Source: an uncultured Lachnospiraceae bacterium
Lineage (GTDB): Bacteria > Bacillota > Clostridia > Christensenellales > UBA1242
DNA: 64,000 bases
Direction: 5' to 3'
NCBI GenBank assembly: GCA_964432825.1
Contig: CAYSOX010000002.1
Span: forward strand, 16,188-80,187
The translations under genes were made by a program, and so were the position numbers. This document shows, one piece after another, positions 3,652-64,000 of the stretch. The notes under the pieces are model-generated. The model ran no database searches. It had not been told where the DNA came from and worked only from the letters and a program-made list of their open reading frames with translations. Each line of letters opens with the position of its first letter. Within the stretch, counting starts at the first letter, position 1.

Positions 3652-3664
3652 TAGTAAATTTAAC

Positions 3665-12837: not shown

Positions 12838-12863
12838 ATTTACCCCTTGAATTTTTTAAGAAA

Positions 12864-12998: not shown

Positions 12999-13070
12999 AA
13001 TATCCTCTCCTTGAAATTGTATTTATTAAGTATAAGGCAAAAGCCTCATATTAACAGTTTAAACAAAGTT

Positions 13071-13099
13071 ATTATAATGGACAAATTGATTTTTGTCAA
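13071..13099 (-). promoter_or_regulatory. Consensus sigma-A promoter of the rpmH operon
   Basis: On the minus strand: TTGACA (13099-13094), a 17-nt spacer, then TATAAT (13076-13071). Confidence 0.7.
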
Positions 13100-13290
13100 C
13101 ATATTTTAAATTAAAATATTAATAAATAATTGACATAAAGGCAAAAACCAATTACACTTTAATAGTAAAATACTAAACAAATTGCAAAAGAAACAAAAAA
13201 ATTCAAAATTTTTGGTAAATTTTGGTGAAATATTGAAAAATTTATAAGAAAATGTTAAAATTTAACTAAAAATGGTAAGCAGAGGGAAAA

Positions 13291-14643: not shown

Positions 14644-14673
14644 ACTAAAATAGATTAGATAAGGAAAATAAAG

Positions 14674-27819: not shown

Positions 27820-27825
27820 TTTCTG

Positions 27826-48421: not shown

Positions 48422-49327
48422 ATGGATAAAGTAGTTTTAATTGGATGTGGAAATGTGGGGGTAAGTTATGCATATAGTTTAATCAATAGTTCGGTACACG
48501 TTGATGAATTTGTGCTTATTGATGTTTTTAAAGAGGTTGCTGAGGGTCAAGCCTTGGATTTGTCGCACGCATGCAGTGCATTAAATAAAAGAATGAAAAT
48601 TTATGCGGGAGATTATTCGGATTGTGGTGATGCGAAAATTGTTTGCATCTGTGCCGGTCGAGGACAAGCGGTGGGTGAGACTAGAATGGATTTGATTAAT
48701 AAAAATTATGAAGTTTTTAAAAGCATTATTGGAGAGGTCGGCAAGACAAAATTTGATGGAATATATTTGGTTGCAACCAATCCGCTGGATGTAATGACGG
48801 CAATCACGCAAAAACTTTCAGGCTTCCCTAAAAACAAGGTTATTGGTAGCGGAACAACACTAGACACTGCAAGACTAAGAAGCCTTATAAGTAAAGAATT
48901 AAACTTAAACCCAAAAAATATTCATGCATATGTGATTGGTGAACATGGTGATAGTGAATTTATTCCATGGAGCAATGCAATAATTGGTTTAAATAAAGCA
49001 ACCGACTTTTTAAACAAGACTAAAAGAAATCAAATTTTAAAAGATGTTCGCCAATCCGCTTATGAAATTATTCAAAAGAAAGGCAATACTTGTTTTGGTA
49101 TTGGGGTATGTCTTAGAAACATCACAAAGGCAATCTTGGAAGATACCAATTCAATTATGACAGTTTCGTCTTTTGATGGTGTATATGGAACCTATTTGGG
49201 TCAACCCACCGTTGTTGGTTCGGACGGTGCTGAAAAGGTTATGCATTTGGAGTTAACCGAAGAAGAACAAACCGAGTTAAATGCTTCGGTTTCGGCTATA
49301 AAAAATGCATTAAAATCTTTAAACTAG
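48422..49327 (+). CDS. ldh: L-lactate dehydrogenase
   Basis: VVLIGCGNVGVSYAY (NAD-binding fold) and IGEHGDSEF. Start moved to the ATG at 48422 after AAGGAGAAAAG. The track ORF begins at an upstream TTG. Confidence 0.9.
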   Translation: MDKVVLIGCGNVGVSYAYSLINSSVHVDEFVLIDVFKEVAEGQALDLSHACSALNKRMKIYAGDYSDCGDAKIVCICAGRGQAVGETRMDLINKNYEVFKSIIGEVGKTKFDGIYLVATNPLDVMTAITQKLSGFPKNKVIGSGTTLDTARLRSLISKELNLNPKNIHAYVIGEHGDSEFIPWSNAIIGLNKATDFLNKTKRNQILKDVRQSAYEIIQKKGNTCFGIGVCLRNITKAILEDTNSIMTVSSFDGVYGTYLGQPTVVGSDGAEKVMHLELTEEEQTELNASVSAIKNALKSLN

Positions 49328-49595
49328 GGTAAAATTTCATAATATATCGACTTTTTATCTATTTTGGCGAAGAAAATATTGACAAATTAGTCATTTTGGT
49401 GTAGCATTTACAATGTAAAGCAATGGGAAGAGTCTGGGTGGTAAACGGTTGAAAAAGTTAAACTTTTAAGTTTTCTAGATTAAAACTTTAAAAAGCGTAA
49501 ATCAACTAGGCTTCAATTTTAATGCCCTCTAGTGCCCCCAAAAAGCAAAAATCCAACTTTTGGTAAATAAAAAAGGAAAATAAAAGGAAATTATT

Positions 49596-49652
49596 ATGTT
49601 TCAAACACTAAATAATAATAACAATAATAATTTAAACGCACAAAAATTTTAG
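49596..49652 (+). CDS. Candidate asnS leader peptide MFQTLNNNNNNNLNAQKF (8 Asn in 18 codons)
   Basis: SD AAAGGA lies 8 nt upstream of the ATG. There are seven consecutive Asn codons (AAT/AAC) plus one more. The stop codon lies 29 nt before a strong intrinsic terminator, and asnS is the next gene. Confidence 0.6.
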   Translation: MFQTLNNNNNNNLNAQKF

Positions 49653-49680
49653 TGGGTTCCTTTTGAGTTAAAAAAAATTT

Positions 49681-49720
49681 AAGTCACTTTTTAGGAAAAC
49701 ACTAAGAAGTGACTTTTTTT
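49681..49720 (+). terminator. Attenuator terminator in the asnS leader
   Basis: A 14-bp stem, AAGTCACTTTTTAG (49681-49694) with CTAAGAAGTGACTT (49702-49715, one G-U pair), loop GAAAACA, and a T7 tail. Confidence 0.8.
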
Positions 49721-49934
49721 AGGAGGGAATTATGGCAAGACGAAACGCCGTGGCGGGCGAAGGGATAAAATTAAATTAATAAAAAATGTAACAATTAAAC
49801 TTGTAAAATTGATATTATTTGTGCTAAACTAAAAAAGTAAAGAAAAACACAGTTTTATATAAAATAAGCCGAATTAATAAAAGGTGTTTTAAATGGGCAC
49901 AAGAAAACTTAAAAACTAAAATTAGGAGTAAATT

Positions 49935-51323
49935 ATGAAAAAAATTGATATTAAAATTTTAAATGAAGAATTTGAAAAGCATTCGGGAGAAATAGTAAAA
50001 GTTGCGGGCTGGGTAAAAAGTGTTCGAAATAGCAAAGATTTCGGATTTTTAACCATCACCGATGGTACATGTTTTAAACCTTTGCAAATAATTATTGATA
50101 CCACACTTGAAAATTTTGAAGCCGTTTCAAAGTTGATTGCCGGCTCAACGGTTATTGTAGAAGGTGAGGTTAAGTGTACTCCAGAAAATAAGCAACCTTA
50201 TGAACTTTTGGCACGAAATGTTGAAATTTTCTGTGCTACAGATAATGAATATCCTTTGCAAAAGAAGGGGCATTCGGTCGAATTTTTGCGTAAAATTGCT
50301 TATTTAAGACCTCGCTCAAACCTTTTCCAGGCAGTTTTTAGAATAAGAAGTGTTGCAGCACAGTCAATCCATAACTATTTTCAAAAGAACGGATATTTAT
50401 ATGTAAACACTCCACTTATCACAACTGCCGATTGTGAGGGCTCGGACCAAATGTTTAAAATCACCACACTTAAGTTTGATGATTTGCCAAAAACCGAAGA
50501 CGGAAAGGTTGATATGACTCAAGACCTTTTTGGAAAACAAGCATTTATAACGGGTTCTGGGCAACTTCATGGTGAGGCTTTTGCTTTGGCATTCAACAAA
50601 ATTTACACCTTTGGGCCTACCTTCAGAACGGAAAATTCAAACACAAAATATCATGCTAACGAATTTTGGATGATAGAACCAGAAATAGCCTTTTGCGACT
50701 TAGACGAACTTATGGATATAGAGGAAGATATGCTAAAGTCGGTGGTTGGTGATGTTTTAAGGGATTGTCCAGATGAATTGGCGTTTTTGAATCAATTTAT
50801 AGACAACACTTTACTTGAAAAACTTAACAAGTTGGTAAATAGCAAGTTTACCCGTATTGACCATAGCGAAGTTATTGATATCTTGCAAAAAGCCGATTGT
50901 AAGTGGGAATTTTATCCTGAACAAGGCGGAGATATCGCAAAAGAACACGAAAAATATATAACCGAATATTTCAATGGCCCGGTATTTATCAAAAATTGGC
51001 CAAAGGATATTAAGGCTTATTATATGAAGCAAAACGCCGACGGAAAAACGGTTGCTGCGGTAGATTTGGAAGTTCCGGGTGCTGGCGAACTTATGGGTGG
51101 AAGTCAAAGAGAAGAGTCTTATGAAAAGATTATGAAAAGGTGTGAGGAAATGGGTGTAGACACCTCTTCAATTGACTGGTATTTAAATTTAAGAAAATTT
51201 GGTTCTTGTGTTCACTCGGGGTTCGGGATGGGCTTCGAAAGATTGGTTATGTACCTAACGGGTGTAGATAACATTCGTGACACTATTCCATTCCCAAGAA
51301 CACCATTAAATTGTGCATATTAA
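49935..51323 (+). CDS. asnS: Asparaginyl-tRNA synthetase
   Basis: Class IIb synthetase: FGPTFRTENSNTKYHANEFWMIEPE (AsnRS-type motif 2 region) and GFGMGFERLVMYLTG (motif 3). Confidence 0.97.
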   Translation: MKKIDIKILNEEFEKHSGEIVKVAGWVKSVRNSKDFGFLTITDGTCFKPLQIIIDTTLENFEAVSKLIAGSTVIVEGEVKCTPENKQPYELLARNVEIFCATDNEYPLQKKGHSVEFLRKIAYLRPRSNLFQAVFRIRSVAAQSIHNYFQKNGYLYVNTPLITTADCEGSDQMFKITTLKFDDLPKTEDGKVDMTQDLFGKQAFITGSGQLHGEAFALAFNKIYTFGPTFRTENSNTKYHANEFWMIEPEIAFCDLDELMDIEEDMLKSVVGDVLRDCPDELAFLNQFIDNTLLEKLNKLVNSKFTRIDHSEVIDILQKADCKWEFYPEQGGDIAKEHEKYITEYFNGPVFIKNWPKDIKAYYMKQNADGKTVAAVDLEVPGAGELMGGSQREESYEKIMKRCEEMGVDTSSIDWYLNLRKFGSCVHSGFGMGFERLVMYLTGVDNIRDTIPFPRTPLNCAY

Positions 51324-51325
51324 AA

Positions 51326-51366
51326 TATTGCCGACAGCAAAATGCTGTCGGCATATTGGTTTTTAT
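51326..51366 (+). terminator. Intrinsic terminator after asnS
   Basis: A 10-bp GC-rich stem, TGCCGACAGC (51329-51338) with GCTGTCGGCA (51344-51353), followed by TATTGGTTTTT. Confidence 0.7.
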
Positions 51367-51374
51367 TTTAATAT

Positions 51375-51680
51375 TCCGCCCGACATTTGCGGACGGGCGG
51401 AACGAATTTTCCGTATCTTTGTTCATCTTTTCGGTAAAATATAAAAGGAATAGGTTTTTCTATAATATATTCTTTACTTATAAACAAAACCAACATCTTA
51501 TGCATTTCCACTTTAGTGAGTTATACTAGTAGATTTGCTTGAATTTTGAGAATAACACACCCAAAACAGATTCCCGATCTAGGTGACCCTGTCGGGGTTC
51601 TGTTTTGGGTGTGTTAACTCAAAAGGCAAGTAAAGATACGGACGACCATTTCCGCTCATCCGGTAAAGGTCAAGCGGAGT
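51375..51680. repeat. Structured GC-rich modular repeat, copy A
   Basis: Alpha module at 51375-51440: hairpin CCGCCCG..CGGGCGG followed by TCCGTATCTTTGTTCATCTTTTCGGTAAAAT. A long hairpin at about 51546-51622 with a perfect 15-bp core, ACACACCCAAAACAG/CTGTTTTGGGTGTGT. An inverted beta module at 51618-51680. The reverse complement of 51530-51645 matches 63660-63775 at about 90% when aligned by eye. Confidence 0.8.
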
Positions 51681-51740
51681 CTCACTTATAATCGATGCTG
51701 TAATCTTTTTGTAATTGCTCCAACTGGGCAATTGCCAAAA

Positions 51741-52415
51741 TTACTTCGTATAATAATCGGTGTCGTAATCTCTATTAAAGTGCTTTTGATATAATTCTTT
51801 TAATAATTTTTGACTAGTTTCAGAAACTTTAGGGTCGGAAGGGGTCGAAAAAACTCTAGATGAAGGTGGCAAATTTATTCCGTGGATACGCTTATAAATG
51901 TCAATAGAAGATTCGGTTGGATGAATCATTCTCTCCATTCTAATCACTTCAATTTCGGCATTTTTCGTTTTTTCGGCATTTTCAATTTTTGCCTTTTCAA
52001 GGGCAATTTCGTTTATATATGCACGCATAATTTTTTCGGATAATTGTGTTAGTTGTTTAGAATTTCCTACGGGTTCATTTAAAATTTTTAATATTTCTTC
52101 ATCAGAAAAATAATTTTCGTTGGGATTGCTTTTAGAAATTAAAATCCGCCAAGATTTTGGAATTTCATCAAAATATGAGTTTTCCATAATGTGTTTAAAA
52201 GCGGTGCTAGGGTTATAAATGCGGACAAATTGCAAGTGTTTGTTTAAAAAGAAAAAATCTTCATCATACTCATAATTATGCTCAATCTTTTTAAAATCGG
52301 GCAATCTTATAATCAATTGATTATCCGTGGTTTTGTAGGGAAGAATAAATGTTTTTCCTTCAAGTTCAAAGCACGCCCATTTTATATCTTTAAATCTTAA
52401 AACTTTTTGTTTCAT
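51741..52415 (-). CDS. Hypothetical protein
   Basis: RBS GGGGGC. 224 aa. No recognisable motif. Confidence 0.6.
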   Translation of the reverse strand: MKQKVLRFKDIKWACFELEGKTFILPYKTTDNQLIIRLPDFKKIEHNYEYDEDFFFLNKHLQFVRIYNPSTAFKHIMENSYFDEIPKSWRILISKSNPNENYFSDEEILKILNEPVGNSKQLTQLSEKIMRAYINEIALEKAKIENAEKTKNAEIEVIRMERMIHPTESSIDIYKRIHGINLPPSSRVFSTPSDPKVSETSQKLLKELYQKHFNRDYDTDYYTK

Positions 52416-52717
52416 ATATGCCCCCGCTTAATTTAATAATTTAATGGTATAACGAAAATTAAAAATTGTCAATACTAAAGCCAAAAATTGGTGGGGTATA
52501 CTAAAATTTGTCAATATAAAAGCACTAAAATTTCCCGTGTATATAAAAATTATGGGTAGAAAAAATTAAACTGCAGTGCAATTATTTGTGGAAAAGTTCG
52601 AAAAAAATGTATAAAAAAAGAAATAAATTTCATTAATTAGTGCAATTAACTTGAAATTTTTAAAAGTTGTGATAAAATAGTTAAATAGTAAATTAAAATA
52701 TACAAAGGAGTAAATTT

Positions 52718-53353
52718 ATGAAAAAATTTTTTAAAGAATTTAAAGAATTTATCAGCCGTGGCAATATTGTAGATATGGCTGTCGGTGTTATTGTCGGCGG
52801 TGCATTCAGCACAATCGTAACCGCATTAACAAACAAAATCATTATGCCTTTTATTAACTGGATTCTTTCTGCTGGTGGAGAGGGTGAAAATGGTTTAGAA
52901 AAAGCCTTCACCTTTTTAAGAAAAGTGTATGATGAAAACGGTGCAGTTGACCTTGAAAAGAGTATTTACATTGATTGGGGTTCATTTATCACTGCAATTA
53001 TTAACTTCTTCTTAATAGCACTTGTTCTATTTATCATCCTAAAGGCTGTTATGAAGGCAAATGCACTTATGAAAGAAGCGGTAGACGAAGCAAAAGACAA
53101 GTCTAAGCGTGAAGAAAAACGCGAATGCCGTGCAAAAGCAAAGGCTGAGGGCAGAAAGTATAAAGAGGTTTGGGCAGAACTTCAAGCCGAAAAGAAGGCT
53201 AAAGCAGAAGAGTCTGCAAAACTAAAGGCTGAAGAAGAGGCTAAACGAAAAGCCGAAGAAGAGGCAACCAAGATTGCTACAAGCAACAAAGAAGAAGAAT
53301 TGCTTTCTCAAATTAGAGATTTGCTAGCACAACAAATCGTATATAAAAAATAA
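52718..53353 (+). CDS. mscL: Large-conductance mechanosensitive channel MscL with an inserted K/A/E-rich segment
   Basis: FKEFISRGNIVDMAVGVIVGGAF and the C-terminal EELLSQIRDLL. About 60 extra residues of KAKAE-type repeats lie before the C-terminal helix. Confidence 0.9.
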   Translation: MKKFFKEFKEFISRGNIVDMAVGVIVGGAFSTIVTALTNKIIMPFINWILSAGGEGENGLEKAFTFLRKVYDENGAVDLEKSIYIDWGSFITAIINFFLIALVLFIILKAVMKANALMKEAVDEAKDKSKREEKRECRAKAKAEGRKYKEVWAELQAEKKAKAEESAKLKAEEEAKRKAEEEATKIATSNKEEELLSQIRDLLAQQIVYKK

Positions 53354-53539
53354 GAAAAAACACTAATTGCGGTTTTTATATCCCAAAAGTTGGATAAAAA
53401 TTTAATAATAAAATTGTTTATTTTGAGTTCGGTATTTTATCGGACTCAATTTTTTTATTCGGAATTTTTTAAAACAGAATTTTCACATACTGTTACAGCC
53501 CCTCATATATTGAATTAACTTAAAAATTGGGGGAAGAGA

Positions 53540-54856
53540 ATGGCAAAATATTTCGGAACGGATGGAATCCGCGGAGAGGTGGGAAAGGTTGTTAATTTCA
53601 AACTTGCAAGAAATTTAGGGATGGCACTAATAAAATATCGACCAAATGCAAAAGTTGTCGTTGCAACGGATACTCGTCCAAGTGCGGTGGTTTTAAAACA
53701 AGGATTGTTTTTGGGATTAGTCAATGGCGGTGCTGAAGTGGTGGATGTTGGGGTGTGTCCAACGGCAGGCGTTTCCTTTTTGACTGAGGTGTTAAATGCG
53801 GATTTTGGTGTGGTGATAACAGCATCGCACAATCCTCCAATGTATAATGGCTTAAAAGTTTTTAATAAAAATGGCGAAAAATTATCGGTTGCCGAGGCTG
53901 AAGCCATAGAAATGTTGATGGAAGAAGAGTTTGAATTAAATTATTTTTCCACAGGGATTGTAAAAACGCGTTTTAAACTTGTGGAACTATATATTGAATA
54001 TTTAGTAAATGCAACAGATGTGTCGCTTGAGGGCTTAAAAATAGTTCTAGACTGTGCAAACGGCGCGGGTGTTGTGGTTGCTAAAAGGGTTTTTGAAGAT
54101 TTAGGGGCGGAAGTTTTACAGATTGGCGGAAGCACTAATGGAGTTTATATAAATGATGGGTTTGGGGCGTTGCACCCTGAATTGCTTTGCGAGGAAGTTA
54201 AAAATAGAGGTGCCAATTTGGGGCTTGCGTTTGATGGTGATGCCGACCGCCTAATTGTGGTAACATCGGACGGAAGCATTTTTAATGGTGACCAAACGCT
54301 CTTTGTTTTGGCAAACTATTTGAAAACTCAGGGAAAATTAAAGAAAAATTCGGTGGTTGTTACGTTGGAAACCAATCAAGGAATAATTATTGCCTTAAAA
54401 AATTTAGGGGTTAATTGTGAAGTTGTTTCGGTGGGTGACCATTTTGTGGTTGAAAAAATGGCAGAGAAGGGCATAAGTCTTGGCGGTGAGCGGTCGGGAC
54501 ATATCATTTTGGGTGATTTTGCAAAAACCGCCGATGGGATTTTGGCGGGTGTTATGCTTTCTGGTATTGTAAAACAAACGGGTAAAAGTTTAAACGCACT
54601 TTCGTGTAAAAGTTTACGAAAATTTGCCGAAAGAAATTATAAAACTTGTAAAGCCGACTTTATTCTAAAGAATAAAGATGTGGGTGAGGTTGTAAACTTT
54701 GTGTCAACAAGTCTGGGTGATTTTGGGCGAGTTTTGGTTCGAAAAAGTGGAACGGAGGATGTTGTTCGGGTTTTGGTGGAGTCTGAAAGTATGGCACTTG
54801 CAAATTGTTATGCCGACCAAATTTTAACTTGCATTAAAACCGTGGACGAAAAATAA
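53540..54856 (+). CDS. glmM: Phosphoglucosamine mutase
   Basis: YFGTDGIRG, the active-site ITASHNPPMYNGLK, and the metal site FDGDADR. Confidence 0.95.
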   Translation: MAKYFGTDGIRGEVGKVVNFKLARNLGMALIKYRPNAKVVVATDTRPSAVVLKQGLFLGLVNGGAEVVDVGVCPTAGVSFLTEVLNADFGVVITASHNPPMYNGLKVFNKNGEKLSVAEAEAIEMLMEEEFELNYFSTGIVKTRFKLVELYIEYLVNATDVSLEGLKIVLDCANGAGVVVAKRVFEDLGAEVLQIGGSTNGVYINDGFGALHPELLCEEVKNRGANLGLAFDGDADRLIVVTSDGSIFNGDQTLFVLANYLKTQGKLKKNSVVVTLETNQGIIIALKNLGVNCEVVSVGDHFVVEKMAEKGISLGGERSGHIILGDFAKTADGILAGVMLSGIVKQTGKSLNALSCKSLRKFAERNYKTCKADFILKNKDVGEVVNFVSTSLGDFGRVLVRKSGTEDVVRVLVESESMALANCYADQILTCIKTVDEK

Positions 54857-55378
54857 GCCTATTTTATCCCATTGCCCGATATAATAAATGGTTTTTTGAT
54901 GTAAGGGTATAACACAATTTGGTGTTAATTGAGGGCGATGTGGGCTTGTAAACACAAATTTTTCAGTGTCGAATTTTTATAGATATTAAAAAATACTTAA
55001 TTTAAAGCCCAATTAGGATAATTTTCGCCGGTAATTTGCTTAAATTTTTTTAAAAACCCATGCTGGTTCAGTGTGCAAAAATTTTTGAAAAACCTCCGTC
55101 GGTAGGGCAAGTATAAGTTTATGAATAGCGCTTCCGAGTTCAGTGTGTATATATTTATGATGAACTTTTACTAGTAAGGTATAATTAAATTTTTTGAAAG
55201 ACCGCCGTCGGAACGATATGCTTAAATTTTCGCAAAAATAATACAAAAACCGGATTTGTGTAAGTAGGGTTTACGCGTGTATTTGGTTTTGTTGTGTTTT
55301 TACAAAAAAATAATGACAGTGGGGTTGATTTCTCTCGCATTTAGGTGGGTGGATGGGTGGAAATTTAACAATTTTCTC

Positions 55379-55407
55379 TTGTAAAAGTCTTTTAGTTTTG
55401 TTATAAT
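55379..55407 (+). promoter_or_regulatory. Candidate promoter ending 10 nt before the ABC-F start codon
   Basis: TTGTAA (55379-55384), a 17-nt spacer, then TGT-TATAAT (-10 at 55402-55407). The ATG is at 55417 with no SD between them. Confidence 0.6.
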
Positions 55408-55416
55408 ACTGTTGTT

Positions 55417-57351
55417 ATGAAGATAAGGCTAAACGATGTGAGTGTGTCCTTTGGCGAAAACACCGTGTTGTCGCACATCAATTTTGAAATTAATGAGGGT
55501 GACAAGGTTGCATTAATTGGAAGAAATGGATGCGGAAAGTCCACCTTAATTAAGGTGATAACAGGCGAACAAGATATAGACAAGGTGGAAGAGGGAACTC
55601 ATATAAATAGAATTGAAAAAACGGGTTCGTTTAAAATTGGGCAAATCAAACAGATTACCTTTGATGACGACAGCGCAACCCTAGAAGATGAGGTGCTAAA
55701 AGCATACTCATATATTTTTGATGTTAAAAATAAGATGGAAGAGTTGGAGCGAGTTCTTGAGTCGGGTGCTAGCGAAAAACAAATTGAAAAGTACACCAGA
55801 CTTTGCGAAGACTTTGAACGGATTGGCGGGTATACATATAAAAAAGAATGCAACAAAGCCTTAAAAAACTTCGGATTTACCGAAGAGGAAAAACAAAAGA
55901 AAATTTCGGAATTTTCGGGCGGGCAACGAACAAAAATTGCTTTGATAAAATTGCTTCTTTCAAAACCCGATGTTTTAGTTTTGGATGAGCCAACCAACCA
56001 CTTGGATATTCTTGCAATTGAATGGCTGGAAAATTACCTATTAGAATATAAAAAAGCCGTGCTTGTTGTGTCTCACGACCGTGCATTTTTAGACAAATTC
56101 GTAAATGTGGTTTATGAAATTGAGCGTGGAAAAATGAAACGCTATGTTGGAAATTATACTAAATTTACCGAATTAAAAGAAGCGGAGTATCAAAAACAAT
56201 TAAAGGAATACAATGAGTATAAGTCGGAAGTGGAGAGACTTCACTCGCTTGCCGATAGGTTTAGATATAAAGCCACCAAAGCCACCATGGCGCAAAGTAA
56301 ATTAAAGCAAATAGACCGAATGGAGGTGGTTGAAAAGCCAGAAAGTGCCGACGATAAAGCCTTTCACGGAAACACCGAACCACTAAGGGAAAGTTCAACC
56401 AGTGTATTAAAAGTGGATGAACTAAAAATTGGGTACACCAAACCTTTAAGTGAGGTCACTTTTAGAATAAACAAGGGTGACCGCTTGGGGGTTATTGGCG
56501 AAAATGGAACGGGTAAATCTACACTTTTAAAAACCATTATGGGCAAAGTTCAGCCACTTGGTGGGAAAATAACTTTTGGGACAAATTTAGATATTGAGTA
56601 TTTCGACCAACAGACGGTCAGTGCCAATTTATCCGACCAAACAGTTTTTGATAATTATTCGCATGAGTTTCCCGAACTTTCCATAACCGAAGCACGAACG
56701 GATTTGGGGTCGTTTATGTTTAGCGGAGACGATGTTTTTAAAACCATCAAAGAACTTTCGGGTGGCGAACGCGTACGGCTTGCACTTTGTAAGATTTTTA
56801 AAAAGCGTCCAAATTTTTTAATTTTGGATGAACCAACAAATCACCTAGATATAGTTGGCAAAGTTGCACTTGAAAATATGTTAACGAAATATAAAGGAAC
56901 CATTCTTTTTGTTTCGCACGACCGTTATTTTGTAAAGAAAATTGCGACCACATTACTCAGATTTTCGGGCGGAAAAGCGGAGTTTATTAAGTCCAACTAT
57001 GAAGAATTAAAGGCGAAAGAATTGAGGGATGCTGTAGACCCTAAAGTATTAAAAGCAGAAACTATTGAAGAAATTAAAAATAAAGACATCGAACCCGAGG
57101 AAGAAAAACCAAAGGTTAATGAATATTTGTTAAATAAAGAACGCGCACGAAAGGAAGCCCGCGCAAAGCGAATAGAAAAAGAAATAAATGCCCTAGAAAC
57201 AGAGATTTTAGTTTTGCAAGATGAATATAAAAATCCGCAAATATGTAGTGATTTTAAAAAACTTATGGAGATTGAAACGGCAATTGTTAATCGCGAAACT
57301 AAAATTGAAAGTTTAACCGAAGAGTGGTTTGAATTAACCAGCGAAGAGTAG
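55417..57351 (+). CDS. ABC-F family ATPase (two nucleotide-binding domains, no membrane domain)
   Basis: Two Walker A motifs (GRNGCGKST, GENGTGKST), two signature motifs (FSGGQRTK, LSGGERVR), an interdomain linker and a C-terminal coiled coil. Confidence 0.93.
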   Translation: MKIRLNDVSVSFGENTVLSHINFEINEGDKVALIGRNGCGKSTLIKVITGEQDIDKVEEGTHINRIEKTGSFKIGQIKQITFDDDSATLEDEVLKAYSYIFDVKNKMEELERVLESGASEKQIEKYTRLCEDFERIGGYTYKKECNKALKNFGFTEEEKQKKISEFSGGQRTKIALIKLLLSKPDVLVLDEPTNHLDILAIEWLENYLLEYKKAVLVVSHDRAFLDKFVNVVYEIERGKMKRYVGNYTKFTELKEAEYQKQLKEYNEYKSEVERLHSLADRFRYKATKATMAQSKLKQIDRMEVVEKPESADDKAFHGNTEPLRESSTSVLKVDELKIGYTKPLSEVTFRINKGDRLGVIGENGTGKSTLLKTIMGKVQPLGGKITFGTNLDIEYFDQQTVSANLSDQTVFDNYSHEFPELSITEARTDLGSFMFSGDDVFKTIKELSGGERVRLALCKIFKKRPNFLILDEPTNHLDIVGKVALENMLTKYKGTILFVSHDRYFVKKIATTLLRFSGGKAEFIKSNYEELKAKELRDAVDPKVLKAETIEEIKNKDIEPEEEKPKVNEYLLNKERARKEARAKRIEKEINALETEILVLQDEYKNPQICSDFKKLMEIETAIVNRETKIESLTEEWFELTSEE

Positions 57352-57446
57352 GTTAGAGGTTTTATGAACAAAAAATATGAGACAAAATGTAGACAAGTTA
57401 TATTTTCACCTCGCAAAAATTACAAAAAAAGGAAAAATTAAAGATT

Positions 57447-58313
57447 ATGGCAAAAGAATTTACACGGTGTGGAGAGATAGAACACACCCTTCAAACGACC
57501 TATAGAAGAAAGATTTGGACACCTTTTGTTAAGGCGGTAAAAGATTTTAACCTTGTGCAAAAGGATGATAAAATCGCCGTTTGCATTTCGGGTGGAAAGG
57601 ATTCAATGCTTATGGCTAAACTTTTTCAGATGTTTCAAAGGATATCAAATGTACCATTCGAAATTGTTTATCTTGTTATGAATCCGGGTTATAACGATGC
57701 AAATCTTAATCGTATTGTAGAAAATGCAAAAATTCTCGAAATTCCAATAACCGTTTTTAACACTAAAATATTTGATGCTACTGTTAAAATAGATAAAAAC
57801 CCTTGCTATATTTGTGCAAGAATGCGAAGAGGATATTTGTATTCCGAAGCAAAAAAGTTGGGGTGTAACAAAATTGCACTTGGTCACCATTACACCGATG
57901 TTATAGAAACCACGCTTATGAGTATGTTGCATGGCGGACAAATTCAAGGGATGTTGCCTCGTATAAAAAGTGCAAATTTTGAAGGTATGGAGTTAATCAG
58001 GCCTCTTTATTATGTGCATGAAGATGCAATAATCAATTGGAAAAATCGGAACAATTTAGAGTTTATTGCGTGCGCTTGTCGGATGACCGAAAAAAATGAA
58101 GAACTTGGATATAATACGCCGTCAACACGCCAACAAATCAAATATTTAATTAAAGAACTCAAAAAGACAAATGAGTTTGTTGAAGATAATATTTTTATGA
58201 GTATGCAAAATGTCCAACTAGATACTTGCAGAGGTTGGAAGATTAAAGATAAAAAGTTTTCGTTTATGGAGCGGTTTAATGAGTCTTCAGACGACACGCC
58301 AAAAAATTCTTAA
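57447..58313 (+). CDS. ttcA: PP-loop ATPase of the TtcA-like tRNA thiolation family
   Basis: PP-loop CISGGKDS and Cys motifs (CYICARMRRG, ACACRM). Confidence 0.75.
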   Translation: MAKEFTRCGEIEHTLQTTYRRKIWTPFVKAVKDFNLVQKDDKIAVCISGGKDSMLMAKLFQMFQRISNVPFEIVYLVMNPGYNDANLNRIVENAKILEIPITVFNTKIFDATVKIDKNPCYICARMRRGYLYSEAKKLGCNKIALGHHYTDVIETTLMSMLHGGQIQGMLPRIKSANFEGMELIRPLYYVHEDAIINWKNRNNLEFIACACRMTEKNEELGYNTPSTRQQIKYLIKELKKTNEFVEDNIFMSMQNVQLDTCRGWKIKDKKFSFMERFNESSDDTPKNS

Positions 58314-58341
58314 ATTTTAAAATACATTTTAAGGAGAAAAT

Positions 58342-59604
58342 ATGAAATATTGTGTATACACCTTGGGTTGCAAGGTCAATTATTACGAAAGTGAAGCAAT
58401 TGCAAGCAAACTAAAAGATTTTGGCGAAGTGACGCACTCATTAGAATTTGCTGATGTATACATAATCAATAGTTGTGCTGTTACAAATGAAGCCGAGCAT
58501 AAATCTCGCGGGGTGATTGCAAAAATAAACAAATTAAACCCAAATGCAAAAATTTATGTTTTAGGTTGTTCGTCCGAACTTCACCGCGAAAGTTATTTGG
58601 GTCGGCAGAATGTGGAGGCGGTTTTCGGAACGGAAAATAAGCAATTGGTGTTGGATGTAATTTGCAAGGGGTTAAAGGGGGATTTTGTCCAACCAATTTC
58701 AAAAGAATATTTGGATAATGCAAAAATTTCGGGAGAGCGAATCCGTTCGTTTATAAAAATTCAAGATGGGTGCAACAACTTTTGTACCTATTGCATAATT
58801 CCCTACACTAGGGGAAGAGAAAGAAGTCGCGACCTTAAATCAATAGAACAAGAGTTAGGTGAGGTTGCAAAAAATTCAAAAGAAATAGTTTTAGTTGGCA
58901 TTAACATCGCGGGCTACGGAAAAGATTTGAAGCCTCAAAAAACCTTGGTGGATGTGGTTAATTTATTTAAAAATTACCCCCAAATAAGGCTAAGATTTTC
59001 ATCTTTTGAAATGGGTGTAATAACCGATGAATTACTTTCAACGCTTGCAAAAATGCCTAATTTTTGCCCGTTTTTTCACCTTGCATTGCAGTCGGGTGAC
59101 GATGAAACACTTAAAAAAATGAACCGAAAGTATACAACAGAAGAATATCTTTTGGCGGTGCAAAAGATTAGAAAGTATTTTAAAGATGCAACAATTTCAA
59201 CCGATATAATTGTTGGTTTTCCAACTGAAACAGAAGAACAATTTAACAATAGTTTAAACTTTGTTAAAAAGTGCAATTTTGCATTTATGCACATCTTTCC
59301 ATACAGCAAAAGAAGTGGAACGGTTGCTGAGCGTTTTGGAATTTTAAATGGCGAAATTGTAAAAAATAGGGTTCTGCGAATGAAAGAAGTAGAAAAAGAT
59401 TTGAAGGCTAGATTTTTGCGGTTAAAACTCGGCAAAGAAGACGAAGTTTTGGTGGAAAATTATCAAAAAGGACTTTTAAAAGGCTTTACAAAAGGTTATG
59501 AAAAATGCTATATTAAAAGTGACAATCTAAGTTTGGTAAACCAAATTGTGAAGGTTAAAATAATAGAACCGTTTGCAGATGGCGTTAGGGCTGAAATAAT
59601 ATAG
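58342..59604 (+). CDS. mtaB: Radical-SAM methylthiotransferase, MtaB/MiaB-like
   Basis: N-terminal UPF0004 cysteines (TLGCKVNYYES..NSCAV..GC), the radical-SAM motif CNNFCTYC, and a TRAM-like C-terminus. Confidence 0.85.
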   Translation: MKYCVYTLGCKVNYYESEAIASKLKDFGEVTHSLEFADVYIINSCAVTNEAEHKSRGVIAKINKLNPNAKIYVLGCSSELHRESYLGRQNVEAVFGTENKQLVLDVICKGLKGDFVQPISKEYLDNAKISGERIRSFIKIQDGCNNFCTYCIIPYTRGRERSRDLKSIEQELGEVAKNSKEIVLVGINIAGYGKDLKPQKTLVDVVNLFKNYPQIRLRFSSFEMGVITDELLSTLAKMPNFCPFFHLALQSGDDETLKKMNRKYTTEEYLLAVQKIRKYFKDATISTDIIVGFPTETEEQFNNSLNFVKKCNFAFMHIFPYSKRSGTVAERFGILNGEIVKNRVLRMKEVEKDLKARFLRLKLGKEDEVLVENYQKGLLKGFTKGYEKCYIKSDNLSLVNQIVKVKIIEPFADGVRAEII

Positions 59605-59947
59605 TCATTAATAATTAAAGAGAATTAGTGCAAATTTTACTAATGTGTAAATTTTAAACTTTTAAGCAAGTTGGTACAACTTTTAATTTTAAACCCAGCC
59701 AGTTTAATATTTTAAACTTTTAAGCATAATTGTAATAAGTTTAAACTTTTAACTATTTTATTGCGAAATTTTTATACATTTAATCCCAATTAGCGTAATA
59801 ATTTCAACTATTTAAGTAATTAGTACAAAACCTTTGAATTTTAACCTAAATTAGTACAAAACCTTTAACTTTTAGGTTGTTTAACACAAACTTTTAAGCA
59901 AGTTTTGGTTCTAAACGAAGATGTTTTAATATTTTAAGGAGAAAAAT

Positions 59948-60340
59948 ATGGATAAAGACTGCATTTTTTGTAAGATAATAAAGGGAGAAATTCCAAGTGC
60001 GAAAATTTATGAGGATGACCAGACTATGGCATTTTTAGATGTTTCAGCCGAAACTTTGGGACACACATTGGTTGTTAGTAAAACGCATACAAAAAACTTT
60101 GCTGAAACGCCGACCGAGGTTTTAAATAGCGTGATTTCAGTTGTTCAAAAAATCGCAAATCACTATTTAAAATGTGGGTTTGACGGCTTTAAAGTTGTCA
60201 CCAATAATGGCGAAAGTTCGGGGCAATCGGTTATGCATTTGCATTTTCACATTTTGCCAAGTGTGAATAGTGAGAACACAAAGTTTTCTGGGTTAAAAAA
60301 AGAGGATTTAAAATCTGTTTGTGAAAGACTTAAGTTTTAG
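59948..60340 (+). CDS. HIT-family hydrolase
   Basis: CIFCKII and the histidine triad HLHFHILP. Confidence 0.85.
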   Translation: MDKDCIFCKIIKGEIPSAKIYEDDQTMAFLDVSAETLGHTLVVSKTHTKNFAETPTEVLNSVISVVQKIANHYLKCGFDGFKVVTNNGESSGQSVMHLHFHILPSVNSENTKFSGLKKEDLKSVCERLKF

Positions 60341-60471
60341 GTAAAATTTTGGATATTATACAAAAGCCAGCAATTAGCCGGACTGATTTTGTATAGCGGT
60401 ACGCTTAAAAATAAATTTGTGACAAAAAACATCAAAAATTGGAAAAATATTGCTAAATCGCTGTGAAACCC

Positions 60472-60500
60472 TTGACAAATAATGGTTTGAGTGATAAAAT
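60472..60500 (+). promoter_or_regulatory. Candidate promoter of rpsU
   Basis: TTGACA (60472-60477), a 17-nt spacer, then TGA-TAAAAT (-10 at 60495-60500). Confidence 0.65.
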
Positions 60501-60538
60501 ATCACAAGAATTTTACAAAAAGCGGGGTGAAAACAGTA

Positions 60539-60721
60539 ATGAGTACCGTAAAACTAGGTGAAAATGAATCTCTAGACAGTGCTATCAAGCGTTTTAAAAG
60601 AAAATGCCAAAAGGACGGCATTATCGGTGATATCCGTAAAAAAGAGGCTTATGTTAAGCCAGGCGTTAAGAAGAAAATGAAATCAGAAGCCGCAAGAAAG
60701 AGAAACCGTAAGAACGGTTAA
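60539..60721 (+). CDS. rpsU: 30S ribosomal protein S21
   Basis: MSTVKLGENESLDSAIKRFKRKCQKDGI..RKKEAYVKPG. Start moved to the internal ATG after GGGGTGA. Confidence 0.9.
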   Translation: MSTVKLGENESLDSAIKRFKRKCQKDGIIGDIRKKEAYVKPGVKKKMKSEAARKRNRKNG

Positions 60722-60729
60722 TTCAAATT

Positions 60730-60756
60730 AACTTCCCCCAAAAGGAAGTTTTTTTG
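60730..60756 (+). terminator. Intrinsic terminator after rpsU
   Basis: AACTTCC pairs with GGAAGTT, loop CCCAAAA, then T6. Confidence 0.75.
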
Positions 60757-60822
60757 TTATTAAAAACAAAACAAAAAGAACAAGAAAATAATATTGTGAA
60801 TACAATATAAAAGGAGGAGTTT

Positions 60823-61263
60823 ATGTTAGATGTTAAAAAACCATGGATTAAACTTATTATATGGGTGTCTGCATTTGTAAGCCCAATAGTTTATGCATTA
60901 GTTGGCGGATTTATATTTTTAAGTGTAGAGGACGAAGAGTTAAGAGAGGAGAATAAAAAAGTTTTTAAAATAGGATTAATATTTTTATGTTGCTCAATTT
61001 TAATGTCTGTTTGGTCGCATATCTTAGGAATGGTTGAATACACCTATGGTTCGCACCGAGCATACACAGTGGCTTCAAATGTTGTTTCATTAATTAAGAT
61101 TTTGTGCTTCGTTGCCTTTGGAATGGTTGCATTATTTAAAAAAACTGAAAAATGTTCGTGTTGTTGTGGACATTCGCATGAGTGCGGGGAGCATTCAAGC
61201 GAAGAAGATTTTGACGAAATGCATGATGATACACTAGACGGTTCAGACGAAGAAGAATTTTAA
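60823..61263 (+). CDS. Hypothetical membrane protein with a Cys/His cluster and acidic tail
   Basis: RBS AAGGAGGAG. Four hydrophobic segments, then KCSCCCGHSHECGEH and a D/E-rich C-terminus. Confidence 0.6.
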   Translation: MLDVKKPWIKLIIWVSAFVSPIVYALVGGFIFLSVEDEELREENKKVFKIGLIFLCCSILMSVWSHILGMVEYTYGSHRAYTVASNVVSLIKILCFVAFGMVALFKKTEKCSCCCGHSHECGEHSSEEDFDEMHDDTLDGSDEEEF

Positions 61264-61546
61264 TAAGATTACTTTTTAGAACAGATTTTCAAAATGTAAA
61301 AAATACAAGCAAAATAGCGAAGTGGAATTTTATTTGCCAAAGCAAAGTAAGATTCGCTTCAAATAGTTGCTTGTATTTTTTTGTTAAAATTAAAAATTTT
61401 AAATAAAAACTATACATTTTTTACAACAAAACAATTTTATAAAATGTTATATAGCAATTTGATAAGCAGAAAAATTGCTAAGTTATTAAAATTTAAAAAG
61501 ACAAAAATTTAAGTTTGGTTAAGATAAAAATACAATAATAAAAGCA

Positions 61547-62770
61547 TTATATCAAACCCACTGGTATCAAGGAGTGTTGTTCATTTATTGGATGAAGTTT
61601 ATCTATTAGACATATTATCCCACCATTTTTAATATTTTTCCCCGTTTTTTCTAGAACTTTAAATTTTTCTATGTCTCGTTTATTTGGATTTGCTGAAAGT
61701 TTTACTTCAAGCGGTGTTATCCCCTCTTGGTCTTCAATTAAAATATCAATTTCATTTTGGTCTATGTCTCTATAAAAGTATATATTTCTTTCGTACGAAC
61801 TTAATGAATTTTTTATCATAAGTTGGTTCATTACAAAGTTTTCAAAGTATGCACCTGCAAGTGCAGAAGATAACAAGGTTTGTTTTGATGGAATTTTTGC
61901 AAGAAATGAACATAATCCGCTGTCAAAAAAGTATAATTTTGGGGATTTTGTAAGTCTCTTTAACCCGTTGTTAAAATAAGGTTGAACTAAATATACAATG
62001 CCTATTCCTTGTAGTAGTGCTAGCCACTCTTTTGCTGTAGGTTCGGTAATGTTTGATGCTGTTGCAAGGTTTGTATAGTTTACAATGGTTGCATTTTGAG
62101 TTGCACAAGCAGTTAAAAATTTCTTAAACTTTACGGCATCGGTAATTTTTCCCAGTTCAAAAACATCTTTCATTAAAAATGTATCCACATAAGATTTGAA
62201 ATATTCATTTCGCATTTCCTCGGTATAACCAATGGTTTTAGGCATTCCACCATTAAAAATATATTCGAACACTTCATTTAATTCTAGTGTTTTACAAAAT
62301 GTTCGGTTTTTTAGTGTGTCAAAATTAAAGTCTGAAGGTAAATCATACAAGTTTTTACTAAATTCGCAGGGTGTAAGAGAATAAATATTCATAATTCCTA
62401 CACGCCCAGCAAGGGATTCGGAAATGTTTTTCATAATTTTGTAACTTTGCGAACCGCTCAACCAAAATTCGCCCGCTTGTTGGTGATTATCCGCCATTAA
62501 TTTAATATACGAAAATAGGTTTGGTGCATATTGTATTTCGTCAATTAAAATAGGTGTAGGGTATTTTTGAAAAAATAATTTGGGGTCGTTGATTGCAAGG
62601 TCTCTATCATCCAAGTCGTCTAAAGTAACATATGTTCGGTTAAAATCTTGTGCAAAATGTTTTAGCATAGTCGTTTTCCCGACTTGTCGGGGTCCACACA
62701 CAAGAACAACTTGAAACATTGAATTTAATAATTTAAATTTTTTTTCTGCTAGTCTATTAAGATAATCCAT
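61547..62770 (-). CDS. AAA+ ATPase with a DUF4143-type C-terminal domain
   Basis: Walker A VCGPRQVGKTT and Walker B ILIDEIQ. 407 aa, typical of the COG1373-like family. Confidence 0.85.
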   Translation of the reverse strand: MDYLNRLAEKKFKLLNSMFQVVLVCGPRQVGKTTMLKHFAQDFNRTYVTLDDLDDRDLAINDPKLFFQKYPTPILIDEIQYAPNLFSYIKLMADNHQQAGEFWLSGSQSYKIMKNISESLAGRVGIMNIYSLTPCEFSKNLYDLPSDFNFDTLKNRTFCKTLELNEVFEYIFNGGMPKTIGYTEEMRNEYFKSYVDTFLMKDVFELGKITDAVKFKKFLTACATQNATIVNYTNLATASNITEPTAKEWLALLQGIGIVYLVQPYFNNGLKRLTKSPKLYFFDSGLCSFLAKIPSKQTLLSSALAGAYFENFVMNQLMIKNSLSSYERNIYFYRDIDQNEIDILIEDQEGITPLEVKLSANPNKRDIEKFKVLEKTGKNIKNGGIICLIDKLHPINEQHSLIPVGLI

Positions 62771-63007
62771 AATTCCTCCGAGTAATCTAAAGTCGACTTT
62801 ATTTTACTCGGATTGATTGTAAATGTCAACTTCATCTGTGCGGTTTTTTGTATTTTTATATAAAAGTTTGAAGGAAATGTTGATAGATGTCAGAGTTTTT
62901 TTGGTGTATAGGAATATACTGAAGTTAAGAAAGGGTGGGTTTTAATTTGACAATATATGACAAAATATGTTACCTTTAATTGTGGAAAACTAAAGGAAGG
63001 TAATAAT

Positions 63008-63526
63008 ATGCTAACAGGAAAAGAAATTTTAAAAAATATTGATAATGGGAATATAGTTATAAAGCCGTTTAACTTAAAACAGTTAAACCCAAATAGTTAC
63101 AATATTACGCTTAATCGTGAATTATTGGTTTACGACTGTGATGTTTTAGATATGAAGCAGGCAAATCCAACAAAAAAGATTATAATTCCAGACGAAGGTT
63201 TGGTTTTGGAACCAAATAAACTATATTTAGGGCGAACCAATGAATACACCGAAACACGAAATTTGGTTCCGTGTATAGACGGCAGAAGCAGTGTAGGAAG
63301 GTTGGGGCTTTTTATCCACGTAACTGCCGGTTTTGGCGATGTGGGGTTTAGAGGCACATGGACGCTTGAAATTCAGTGCATACAGCCTATCCGGATTTAT
63401 CCTAATGTCGAAATTGGACAACTTCATTATGAGTTGGTGCAAGGTGAATGCACCGAATATAAAGGGAAATACCTAAACCAAGTAAATGCAACACCAAGTA
63501 AGTTCAACCAAGATTTTGATAATTAG
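63008..63526 (+). CDS. dcd: dCTP deaminase
   Basis: GRSSVGRLGLFIHVTAGFGDVGFRGTWTLEI. Start moved to MLTGKEIL after AAGGAAGG. Confidence 0.9.
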   Translation: MLTGKEILKNIDNGNIVIKPFNLKQLNPNSYNITLNRELLVYDCDVLDMKQANPTKKIIIPDEGLVLEPNKLYLGRTNEYTETRNLVPCIDGRSSVGRLGLFIHVTAGFGDVGFRGTWTLEIQCIQPIRIYPNVEIGQLHYELVQGECTEYKGKYLNQVNATPSKFNQDFDN

Positions 63527-64000
63527 TTCCGCCCCGCCGAATAGAAAGGTTCCGCTCGACATTTACCGGATGGGCGGAAGTGATTGTTCGTATCTTTGTT
63601 CATCTTTTCGGTAAAATTTAATATCCCGCCCGTCTAAACCGAACGGGCGGAACAAATTGTCCGTATCTTTGCTTGCCTTTTGAGTTAAAACGCCCAAAAC
63701 AGAACCCCGACAGGGTAACCTAGTCGGGAGCCTGTGTTGGGTGTTTTATTCTCAAAATTCAAGCGAACCTACTGGAAAGTGTCACAGCGGGAGAAAAGTT
63801 TAAATGTTAAAGTTTTGATGCCCTATATTAAATTTTAGGGCAACCTATTCCTTTTAATTTCCCTCGAAAATTTAAACAAATCTACTAGGGTAATTTTCTA
63901 TATATGGCAAGGTGGTGGTGATTTGTTTTTGAATATATAAAATTGCACCACAAAATTGTGGTGCAATGTAGGGCGGTTTACAACCGCCCCCGCCGAACCT
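63527..64000. repeat. Structured GC-rich modular repeat, copy B (inverted relative to copy A; runs to the window edge)
   Basis: Alpha module at 63551-63618 and beta module at 63625-63687, in tandem. A long hairpin at about 63677-63760. Further GC hairpins follow: TTGCACCACA/TGTGGTGCAA at about 63943-63967 and GGGCGG..CCGCCC at about 63971-63989. The string CCGCCCC(C)GCCGAA occurs at both 63529 and 63985. Confidence 0.8.

Follow-up and report, generated by a model that had tools for sequence, protein, structure and literature searches.

Two inverted, hairpin-rich intergenic elements of a low-GC Firmicute-like chromosome as a candidate composite palindromic repeat

Two hairpin-rich stretches of non-coding DNA, element A (positions 51367–51685) and element B (63527–63997), lie in opposite orientation about 12 kb apart in a 64,000-nucleotide (nt) stretch of bacterial DNA (the window), each just 3′ of genes. 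Their resemblance raises the question of what they are: recombination sites that flip the DNA between them, mobile insertions, genes for a structured RNA, regulatory switches or a repeat built from palindromic units. The window has a GC content of 32%, and nearly all of its genes carry AGGAG-type ribosome-binding sites. It includes dnaA, dnaN, jag, yidC, mnmE, mnmG, parB and parA, and therefore represents the chromosome origin region. The nearest named homologues of dcd, the gene next to B, come from ‘Clostridia bacterium’ metagenome-assembled genomes (64–68% identity), and spoIIE is present in relatives. Between the elements lie the housekeeping genes glmM, tilS, a miaB-like gene, rpsU and dcd, and homologues of a 224-amino-acid protein encoded beside A form no more than four clusters in a set of 5.8 billion proteins.

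Anatomy of the two elements

A and B are a real, non-random repeat outside every described family. They have in common a 115-nt rod-like hairpin (89% identity, inverted), a 73-nt module that occurs four times and a 15-nt island, none of which appears in shuffled controls (Table 1). A repeat search of the window recovered a direct 73-nt family of three members (A+, B1 and B2) together with inverted matches between 51528–51678 and 63551–63773 at 77–88% identity. A 25-nt module pattern matches the window four times (51411, 63588 and 63661 on the plus strand, 51617 on the minus strand), against 0.00 matches expected and 0 in 100 shuffles; a hairpin-core pattern also matches four times (0.14 expected), and the island AACCTATTCCTTTTA occurs exactly twice (0.08 expected). 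The predicted fold of B as a whole reaches −174.8 kcal/mol (z = −9.2 versus shuffles). That of A reaches −151.5 kcal/mol (z = −13) and forms a single rod, in which inverted module arms of about 65 nt (77% identity) are paired with each other.

Table 1 Features of elements A and B and their immediate flanks (positions in the window)
Feature	Position	Strand	Description
Bidirectional asnS terminator	51329–51353		Left bound of A; loop flipped in strain L090/L095
Module A+	51367–51439	+	H1 at 51374–51402 (−16 kcal/mol); S box at 51411–51439
15-nt island AACCTATTCCTTTTA in A	51442–51456	−	69 nt from long hairpin
Long hairpin of A	51526–51641	−	116 nt; −55 to −65 kcal/mol depending on strand
Module A−	51613–51685	−	H1 at 51650–51679; S box at 51613–51641, the 5′ strand of the long hairpin
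Pseudo 3′ end of the 224-amino-acid gene, GATTACAGCATCGATTATAAGTGA	51682–51705	−	Adjoins H1 of A−; real stop codon at 51741
Last 27 nt of dcd	63500–63526	+	Adjoins B; stop codon ends at 63526
Left direct repeat TTCCGCCCCGCCGAA	63527–63541	+	Like one H1 arm and part of the loop, without a partner arm (half-H1)
Module B1	63544–63616	+	H1 at 63550–63579 (TTCCGCTCG..TGGGCGGAA, −11 kcal/mol); S box at 63588–63616 (TCGTATCTTTGTTCATCTTTTCGGTAAAA)
Module B2	63617–63689	+	H1 at 63624–63652 (−16.4 kcal/mol); S box at 63661–63689, the 5′ strand of the long hairpin
Long rod-like hairpin of B	63661–63775	+	115 nt, about 42 bp; S box paired with imperfect inverted S′; 89% identity to A
15-nt island AACCTATTCCTTTTA in B	63842–63856	+	66 nt past long hairpin; predicted mostly unpaired; spacer on both sides not conserved
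Degenerate inverted S box	63861–63890	−	58% identity to the reverse complement of the A+ S box
Hairpin ATTGCACCAC..GTGGTGCAAT	63942–63967	−	Followed by TTTTATATATT on the minus strand, terminator-like there; kept in distant relative L100
GC hairpin GGGCGGTTTACAACCGCCC and right direct repeat CCGCCCCCGCCGAA	63971–63989, 63984–63997	+	Overlapping; end of B

All of the sequence features that the initial annotation had read from the letters of B are borne out by these comparisons. The tandem modules it placed directly behind the dcd stop codon are B1 and B2, with a 73-nt period, and the long hairpin is predicted at −56.9 kcal/mol. The inverted match to A, put at about 115 nt and 90% identity, spans 116 nt at 91–92% by blastn, and in a MAFFT alignment the S box and long hairpin agree at 105 of 118 positions (89%), compared with 44% over the following 66 nt; the longest exact identity, read off the alignment of A and B, is 24 nt. 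The patchy similarity noted beyond the hairpin includes the island, which is exact in both copies, and the further GC hairpins are present. Its CCGCCCC(C)GCCGAA motif does occur at both ends of B, where the core 10-mer CCCCGCCGAA has its only window matches (63532 and 63988; 0.05 expected). These alignments establish B as a genuine relative of A, inverted and rearranged.

The two copies differ in the order of their parts, as had also been claimed: A carries one module per strand, facing inwards, and B carries two in direct tandem. Along its minus strand A runs from the pseudo gene end through H1, S, apex, S′, the spacer with the island, inverted S and inverted H1 to the asnS terminator. B runs from the dcd end through half-H1, H1, S, H1, S, apex, S′, the spacer with the island, a degenerate inverted S and two hairpins to a second half-H1. 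The degenerate box at 63861–63890 is, to judge by its similarity, what is left in B of the inward-facing module, which A retains.

Two contigs carry the sequence past position 64000. L002, one of five Logan contigs that encode dcd and found through the Dcd protein, is 100% identical to the window and extends 1.5 kb further on the right; L095, found through an identical HIT protein, takes in 20 kb of a 42-kb contig from a strain at 97.6% identity; it runs from asnS through A, the 12-kb segment, dcd and B to 6.8 kb past B. B had been thought to run on past the window edge. In both contigs the second CCGCCCCCGCCGAA is the last of the GC-rich hairpin sequence, so B ends at about 63997, and because it does end there it is reasonable to take the 13–14-nt direct repeats, which bracket the hairpin-rich 443 nt of B, as element boundaries. 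This direct repeat in turn resembles one arm of H1, the hairpin of the module. About 400 nt of unrelated AT-rich non-coding DNA follow B in L002 and L095, then small open reading frames (ORFs) of no assigned function. In L095 the first 20 nt of the dcd-end segment are duplicated 97 nt apart, and the second copy adjoins B. On the left, an attempt at extension with the protein of the first ORF in the window found no record.

A and B are not coding sequence, since no ORF is conserved between them and gene callers placed nothing in the B region of L002. A small protein or type I toxin was considered and set aside: A and B do not have their short ORFs in common, and in one strain a start codon has disappeared. 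A mobile island to the right of B was likewise discarded after searches of Pfam, PHROGs and NCBIfam gave a MazG-like pyrophosphatase, a PAP2 protein, a helix–turn–helix repressor and unassigned proteins, and no integrase.

Units, exchange and conserved pairing

Each 73-nt module is made of H1, a 9-bp GC hairpin (TTCCGCYCG-N10-12-CRGGCGGAA, −11 to −16 kcal/mol), and S, a 28-nt box consisting of CCGTATCTTTG and YTYRYCTTTTSRGTWAA. The further units are the 115-nt rod, the AT-rich spacer with the 15-nt island and the second H1–S module that faces inwards. The rod is an inverted doublet of S and S′, its 3′ strand being an imperfect inverted S (A− and B2). A weaker alternative hairpin, H2, pairs the 3′ arm of H1 with TTCCGT of S (GCGGAA..TTCCGT, −3 to −8 kcal/mol) and is followed by AUCUUUGUUCAUCUUUU; the 3′ arm of H1 doubles as the 5′ arm of H2 in four of four modules, and a U-rich tail, AUCUUUGYUYRYCUUUU, comes after H2. 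A consensus scan counted five terminator-like sites in A (0.3 expected) and five in B (1.1 expected). H1 itself has no U-tract and is therefore no canonical terminator.

The halves of the modules tell different histories. Past their common CGTATCTTT core, the S tails group A+ with B1 (95%) and A− with B2 (86%), whereas the H1 halves group B1 with A− (82%) and B2 with A+ (74%). These incongruent relationships indicate that units have been exchanged between the copies and confirm the modular rearrangement that had been suggested.

H1 occurs at five intergenic sites, four in the window and one in relative L105, with a conserved stem base. A covariation analysis, as had been recommended, used ten variants: the four modules, the strain variants (L090/L095, L091, L092 and L104) and L105. 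In these, 94% of the cells of the H1 stem are paired, compared with 34–50% in slid registers. Double changes affect three of the nine pairs (C–G, U–G and U–A, with U–G intermediates), a covariation score that 2 of 500 shuffles reach; the stem base TTCCGC/GCGGAA is conserved and the inner pairs covary. In the long hairpin, pairing is kept across a C–G to A–U double change and A–U to G–U changes, both between A and B and between strains. The hairpins have thus been maintained, in a manner compatible with a role at the DNA or the RNA level, and palindrome events can also yield such ‘compensatory’ changes. The two strands of the element are predicted to fold about equally well, and the count of non-canonical pairs from the aligned sequences, seven on the module-sense strand versus three on the other, is not a significant difference. 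At the asnS terminator the loop has changed from AAAAT to ATTTT between strains, which shows that palindrome-driven DNA rearrangement is active at this locus.

Occurrence in relatives and sequence collections

At orthologous sites, relatives have simpler intergenic DNA. In L099, whose 224-amino-acid gene homologue is 83% identical, the glmM–mscL/225-amino-acid gene/asnS synteny is kept, and the 727-nt AT-rich spacer holds neither the element nor a GC hairpin. Relatives with dcd at 78–80% identity have a plain terminator and no element after the gene; in a 91% dcd relative, the 69 nt that its short contig shows past dcd are unrelated. The element is absent in L099, L088, L083 and L087, and their flanks are not alignable with the window. 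In L105, a 52% relative, the stop codon of the orthologous gene is followed by 2 nt, H1 (46 bits by cmsearch), 20 nt and the counterpart of the asnS terminator; these parts make up the whole interval. That H1 stands alone there indicates that it is the old, native part and that S, the rod and the inverted module are additions in the species of the window. The right end of B also has an outside counterpart: the hairpin TTGCACCAC..GTGGTGCAA, followed by TGTAGGGCGG, recurs downstream of tilS in L100 (89% over 38 nt, E = 3 × 10−7), making this W-hairpin/GGGCGG unit older than B. L100 is another 52% relative, distinct from L105.

Searches for further copies returned the two known loci, both within roughly 71 kb of sequence from this species. 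An exact IUPAC pattern written to accommodate the four modules matched 38 loci in 185,579 GTDB species genomes, 37 in JGI metagenome contigs and 2 in IMG/VR viral contigs, each an isolated chance match within an unrelated gene. The hairpin core and the W-hairpin/GGGCGG composite had 0 matches in viral contigs, blastn of B against plasmid and phage collections gave no match, and the spurious ORF of the element, translated and used as a protein query, yielded no candidates. A covariance model of H1–S (R1), run over 170 kb (the window, 6.8 kb beyond it and about 100 kb of relatives), found its training copies only, and blastn found no third copy in the contigs past the window or those of relatives.

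Known RNA families, among them 6S RNA, riboswitches and the T-box, were ruled out, as A and B have no Rfam match at the gathering threshold, which one tRNA alone reaches in the window. The best Rfam matches at E ≤ 10 are miRNA-precursor models (27 bits against a 70-bit cutoff), and these reflect generic long hairpins. No RAYT or other transposase appears among the scanned ORFs of the window and L095, a scan that covered all but about ten of the window ORFs. We know of no matching consensus or partner gene here for an integron attC site, an oriT or rolling-circle nick site, or dif. A Bacteroidetes-type promoter, suggested by the likeness of TATCTTTG to a TAnnTTTG −7 box, was rejected because of the strong AGGAG sites on nearly every gene, the Clostridia kin of dcd and spoIIE in relatives. 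Contig ends inside the hairpins were considered as a sign of a multi-copy or flip-flop element; because breaks are also seen in unique sequence and coverage of GC hairpins is poor in AT-rich genomes, they are uninformative.

Origin and possible roles

The reading that we favour, tentatively and with slightly less than even confidence, is that A and B are diverged, rearranged copies of a lineage-specific composite palindromic repeat, built by duplication and palindrome events and transcribed as part of 3′ untranslated regions (UTRs). The H1 after the stop codon of the 224-amino-acid gene is the old unit, native to this site; the remaining units were added in the species of the window, where units have been duplicated, some as direct and others as inverted copies, and exchanged between A and B. 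This growth was probably driven by events common in palindromic DNA: duplication through fold-back or template switching, gene conversion and perhaps transposition. The modules stand 3′ of genes and in gene sense (B1 and B2 after dcd, A− after the 224-amino-acid gene and A+ after asnS), and no evident promoter precedes any of the four H1–S modules; from this arrangement they are probably transcribed as 3′ UTR. Stable hairpins in such a position would be expected to block 3′ exonucleases and read-through, and H2, competing with H1, could act as a weak terminator and give partial termination.

Of the readings that involve movement of DNA, inversion had been put forward for the pair: A and B would be inverted recombination sites that flip the 51.7–63.5-kb segment. 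Their relative orientation and the 116 nt at 91–92% identity fit such a role, yet every spanning contig has the orientation of the window: L095 across A, the segment and B, L090 across A, and L002 and L004 across B (four stretches, of which L090 and L095 belong to one contig of the 97.6% strain). The junction of asnS, A and the 224-amino-acid gene is common to L099 and L105, at 83% and 52% protein identity, and the asnS/224-amino-acid gene junction is therefore ancestral. No recombinant junction occurs in contigs found through asnS, the 224-amino-acid gene, the HIT gene or dcd; an exact match of at most 24 nt is a poor substrate for homologous recombination; the scanned ORFs include no invertase or recombinase; and the segment is full of housekeeping genes. 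On present evidence A and B are not an inversion switch, a role that we regard as extremely improbable, and the contigs would leave room for a rare inverted subpopulation. Insertion is a somewhat better account, albeit one that we consider quite improbable. It would make B a non-autonomous, MITE- or REPIN-like insertion behind dcd that duplicated the 13–14-nt target CCGCCCC(C)GCCGAA, and A a sister insertion by the native H1, with H1-type GC hairpins as preferred targets, much as REP hairpins are for some insertion sequences (ISs). The direct repeat brackets exactly the hairpin-rich part of B and its 10-mer has no further match in the window, the orthologous sites of relatives lack both A and B, A folds into one rod between its inverted module arms, and several Logan contigs terminate within the elements. 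Against insertion, no empty site with matching flanks was found among the relatives, and the direct repeat is H1-like and not the arbitrary sequence expected of a target. The outer ends of B are unconvincing as inverted repeats, and A, read off its sequence, has no flanking duplication. There is no nearby transposase among the scanned ORFs, the collections and the covariance search gave no further copies, and the contig breaks, which also fall outside repeats, may reflect poor coverage of GC hairpins.

Other readings place the function in RNA. A and B could be paralogous genes for a structured small RNA (sRNA) of about 200–250 nt, read from the plus strand of B and the minus strand of A. Such an RNA would have the 115-nt rod at its 5′ end, a variable linker and an accessible, pyrimidine-rich CCUAUUCCUUUU that resembles an anti-Shine–Dalgarno sequence and may pair with AAAGGA-type sites, and would end at a weak terminator in B or at the bidirectional asnS terminator in A. 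Conservation is selective in a way that suits it: the hairpin is kept at 89% and the island at 15 of 15 positions and at similar spacing (66 versus 69 nt), compared with 44% in the spacer, a contrast more suggestive of functional constraint than of neutral decay of a repeat. The UUCCUUU core of the island is predicted to be accessible (probability of being unpaired, 0.6–0.9), the stems have compensatory and G–U changes, and the host genes use strong AGGAG-type ribosome-binding sites. Nevertheless, we find no sigma-70-like promoter upstream of the hairpin on the relevant strand, the terminator candidates are weak, both strands fold nearly equally well, and the 7:3 bias in non-canonical pairs is not significant. 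A nearly perfect 42-bp duplex is also unusual for a trans-acting sRNA, template switching can create compensatory palindrome changes without selection (compare the asnS loop flip), and the element is missing in relatives at 78–91% protein identity; we rate the sRNA reading, the main rival of the composite repeat, as unlikely, while still giving it serious weight. A more specific version, in which A and B encode an undescribed structured RNA with a rod and then an exposed CCUAUUCCUUUU, H1 and H2 couple its synthesis to read-through and the module variants are functional, appears improbable. We are more sceptical still of the H1–S module as a cis-acting switch, in which H1 would serve as anti-terminator against a terminator formed by H2 and its U-rich tail, triggered by a hairpin-binding protein or by a ribosome that melts the 5′ arm of H1 at a stop codon 0–5 nt upstream. 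The overlap of the H1 and H2 arms in all four modules, followed by the U-rich tail, would allow such a competition; in L105 H1 begins 2 nt past a real stop codon, a half-H1 lies directly past that of dcd, and the stem base is conserved while inner pairs covary. However, H2 is weak, H1 stands without H2 in L105, stop triplets are common near any site at 32% GC, and there is no obvious downstream target in need of regulation.

As a composite palindromic repeat, the pair belongs to no described family and, by analogy, fits a well-known kind of bacterial non-coding repeat. Two papers describe the REP and BIME units of Enterobacteria and Pseudomonas as short, GC-rich imperfect palindromes that lie extragenically, 3′ of genes, in mosaics of direct and inverted units and further short motifs, and inverted REP/REPIN doublets as long hairpins in single-stranded DNA or mRNA with reported effects on mRNA stability and attenuation (PMC3116915, PMC3049150). 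A and B are similar in having short GC palindromes 3′ of genes, direct and inverted mosaics, and inverted doublets that fold as hairpins; both an extragenic conserved palindrome (H1) and an inverted hairpin doublet (the modules of A, and S/S′) are present. REP/REPIN families are dispersed over the genome in tens to hundreds of copies and come with a cognate RAYT (Y1) transposase. Unlike them, A and B are known from two loci, have no RAYT among the scanned ORFs and show no sequence similarity; the host is low-GC and Firmicute-like, whereas REP hosts are proteobacterial, and the 73-nt and 115-nt units exceed the 35–40 nt of REP.

BOX elements of Streptococcus pneumoniae are presented in PMC3049150 as composites (boxA–boxB(n)–boxC) with variable tandem modules, co-transcribed with their neighbours and found in one species and its closest relative. 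A and B are likewise Firmicute-hosted and composite, with tandem modules that vary and extensive secondary structure. They differ from BOX, which we compared by its description, in that their modules join a hairpin and a box in nested inverted repeats, and they have no match in plasmid or phage collections. MITEs, in the same source, are typically AT-rich and have clear terminal inverted repeats matching an IS and short target duplications (PMC3049150). Like Correia, RUP and Nezha elements, A and B are non-coding and highly base-paired, with inverted arms and a possible flanking duplication, and are absent at the corresponding sites of relatives. Unlike MITEs, they are built on GC-rich signature units, B is bounded by direct repeats at its outermost ends, and we know of no IS partner; inverted modules lie near both ends of A, and in B the extreme ends are direct and the inward module is at 58%. 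With multi-copy sRNAs they share a structured domain, a perfect short single-stranded motif at similar spacing and a divergent linker, and they differ in lacking an evident promoter or clean terminator, in their far longer stem and shuffled modules, and in their absence from relatives.

If the composite-repeat reading is correct, the pair would bring to light a composite palindromic repeat in a Firmicute lineage with almost no sampling and would be a small, clean example of how one grows: a native 3′ hairpin, alone in one relative, would have been elaborated here by duplication and module exchange, with compensatory changes between strains. The elements would then be useful for studying palindrome dynamics; they would have regulatory interest only under the sRNA reading. 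For annotation, they illustrate that such hairpins break short-read assemblies and draw spurious ORF calls.

Duplicated gene ends beside elements A and B

In the 97.6% strain (contig stretch L095), the final 20 nt of dcd (AAGTTCAACCAAGATTTTGA) are present in two copies, 97 nt apart, which are separated by 77 nt of unrelated sequence; the second copy adjoins element B, the hairpin-rich repeat that follows dcd. This 20-mer is single-copy in the window; the difference could stem from a deletion that ran from one repeat to the other, or from replacement of the allele in which one end was illegitimate. At element A, the inverted counterpart of B, a pseudo 3′ end (..DYSIDYK-stop) lies 35 nt past the real end of the gene for a 224-amino-acid (aa) protein (..DTDYYTK-stop; stop at 51741), immediately adjoining H1, the 9-bp GC hairpin of the 73-nt module. 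In L105, a contig from a relative with 52% identity in this protein, the corresponding stretch forms the true 3′ end of the gene, with H1 after it. The pseudo end and the dcd end in L095 follow the same pattern, that of a duplicated gene end beside the element.

Coordinates of features in the window and in related contigs (-, minus strand)
Feature	Window	Other contigs
dcd-end 20-nt copies	63500-63519 (equivalent)	L095 13552-13571 and 13649-13668
Pseudo 3′ end of 224-aa gene	51682-51705 (-)	
224-aa gene	51741-52415 (-)	
Minus-strand hairpin pair	63942-63997	L002 2385-2519; L100 1-60 and 6728-6769
Operator-like repeats	about 64267-64361 (window numbering)	L002 2718-2812
asnS bidirectional terminator	51329-51353	L090 about 11390-11425; L095 1434-1468
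15-codon ORF	49732-49779	
ldh to dcd	48356-63526	L088 1-1163
Replication-origin genes	2251-4949, 10323-16524, 26767-28623	

Hairpins and repeats at and beyond the right end of element B

The right end of element B carries a canonical terminator on the minus strand (TTGCACCAC..GTGGTGCAA, then TTTTATATATT), preceded by a GGGCGG/CCGCCC hairpin. Upstream of this terminator, L002, a contig that is identical to the window and runs 1.5 kb further, has a promoter-like site (TTGCAA-18-TATATT) at 2519 to 2490, from which a minus-strand transcript of about 95 nt would arise. A 52% relative (L100) keeps the hairpin pair, at a contig end. The arrangement could mark a gene for a small RNA, or a terminator whose gene has been lost. 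All four contigs L100-L103, each from a different sequencing run, end exactly 103 nt past the 224-aa homologue, within ..CCCACCACAAAATGTGGTGGGCGTGCGGGACGGG; this common end suggests that a repeat has its boundary there or that coverage is interrupted at the GC hairpins of that genome.

Downstream of element B, operator-like repeats (two copies of AGTCAAACAATTTT and an inverted GTTTGACTTTT) lie 5′ of a 119-aa open reading frame (ORF) with a strong ribosome-binding site. They are deleted in part in L095.

Chromosomal setting and neighbouring genes

The window spans the chromosomal replication-origin region, as dnaA, dnaN, jag, yidC, mnmE, mnmG, parB and parA are present. Here ldh and dcd are 13.6 kb apart, with housekeeping genes from asnS through the AAA_14/DUF4143 gene between them; in L088, a relative with 91% dcd identity, dcd directly follows ldh with no genes between.

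The 224-aa protein is conserved, with an invariant HPTESSIDIYKRIHGI motif, and no Pfam domain was found in it. Among 5.8 billion proteins its homologues form just four clusters, and its lineage is very rarely sampled.

Within the 600-nt region 5′ of asnS, where an Rfam search found no T-box or other leader, a 15-codon ORF (MARRNAVAGEGIKLN-stop) with a strong AGGAGG site is located directly past a terminator. The bidirectional terminator of asnS shows a hairpin-loop inversion between strains: its stems are identical, but the loop is AAAAT in the window and ATTTT in the 97.6% strain.
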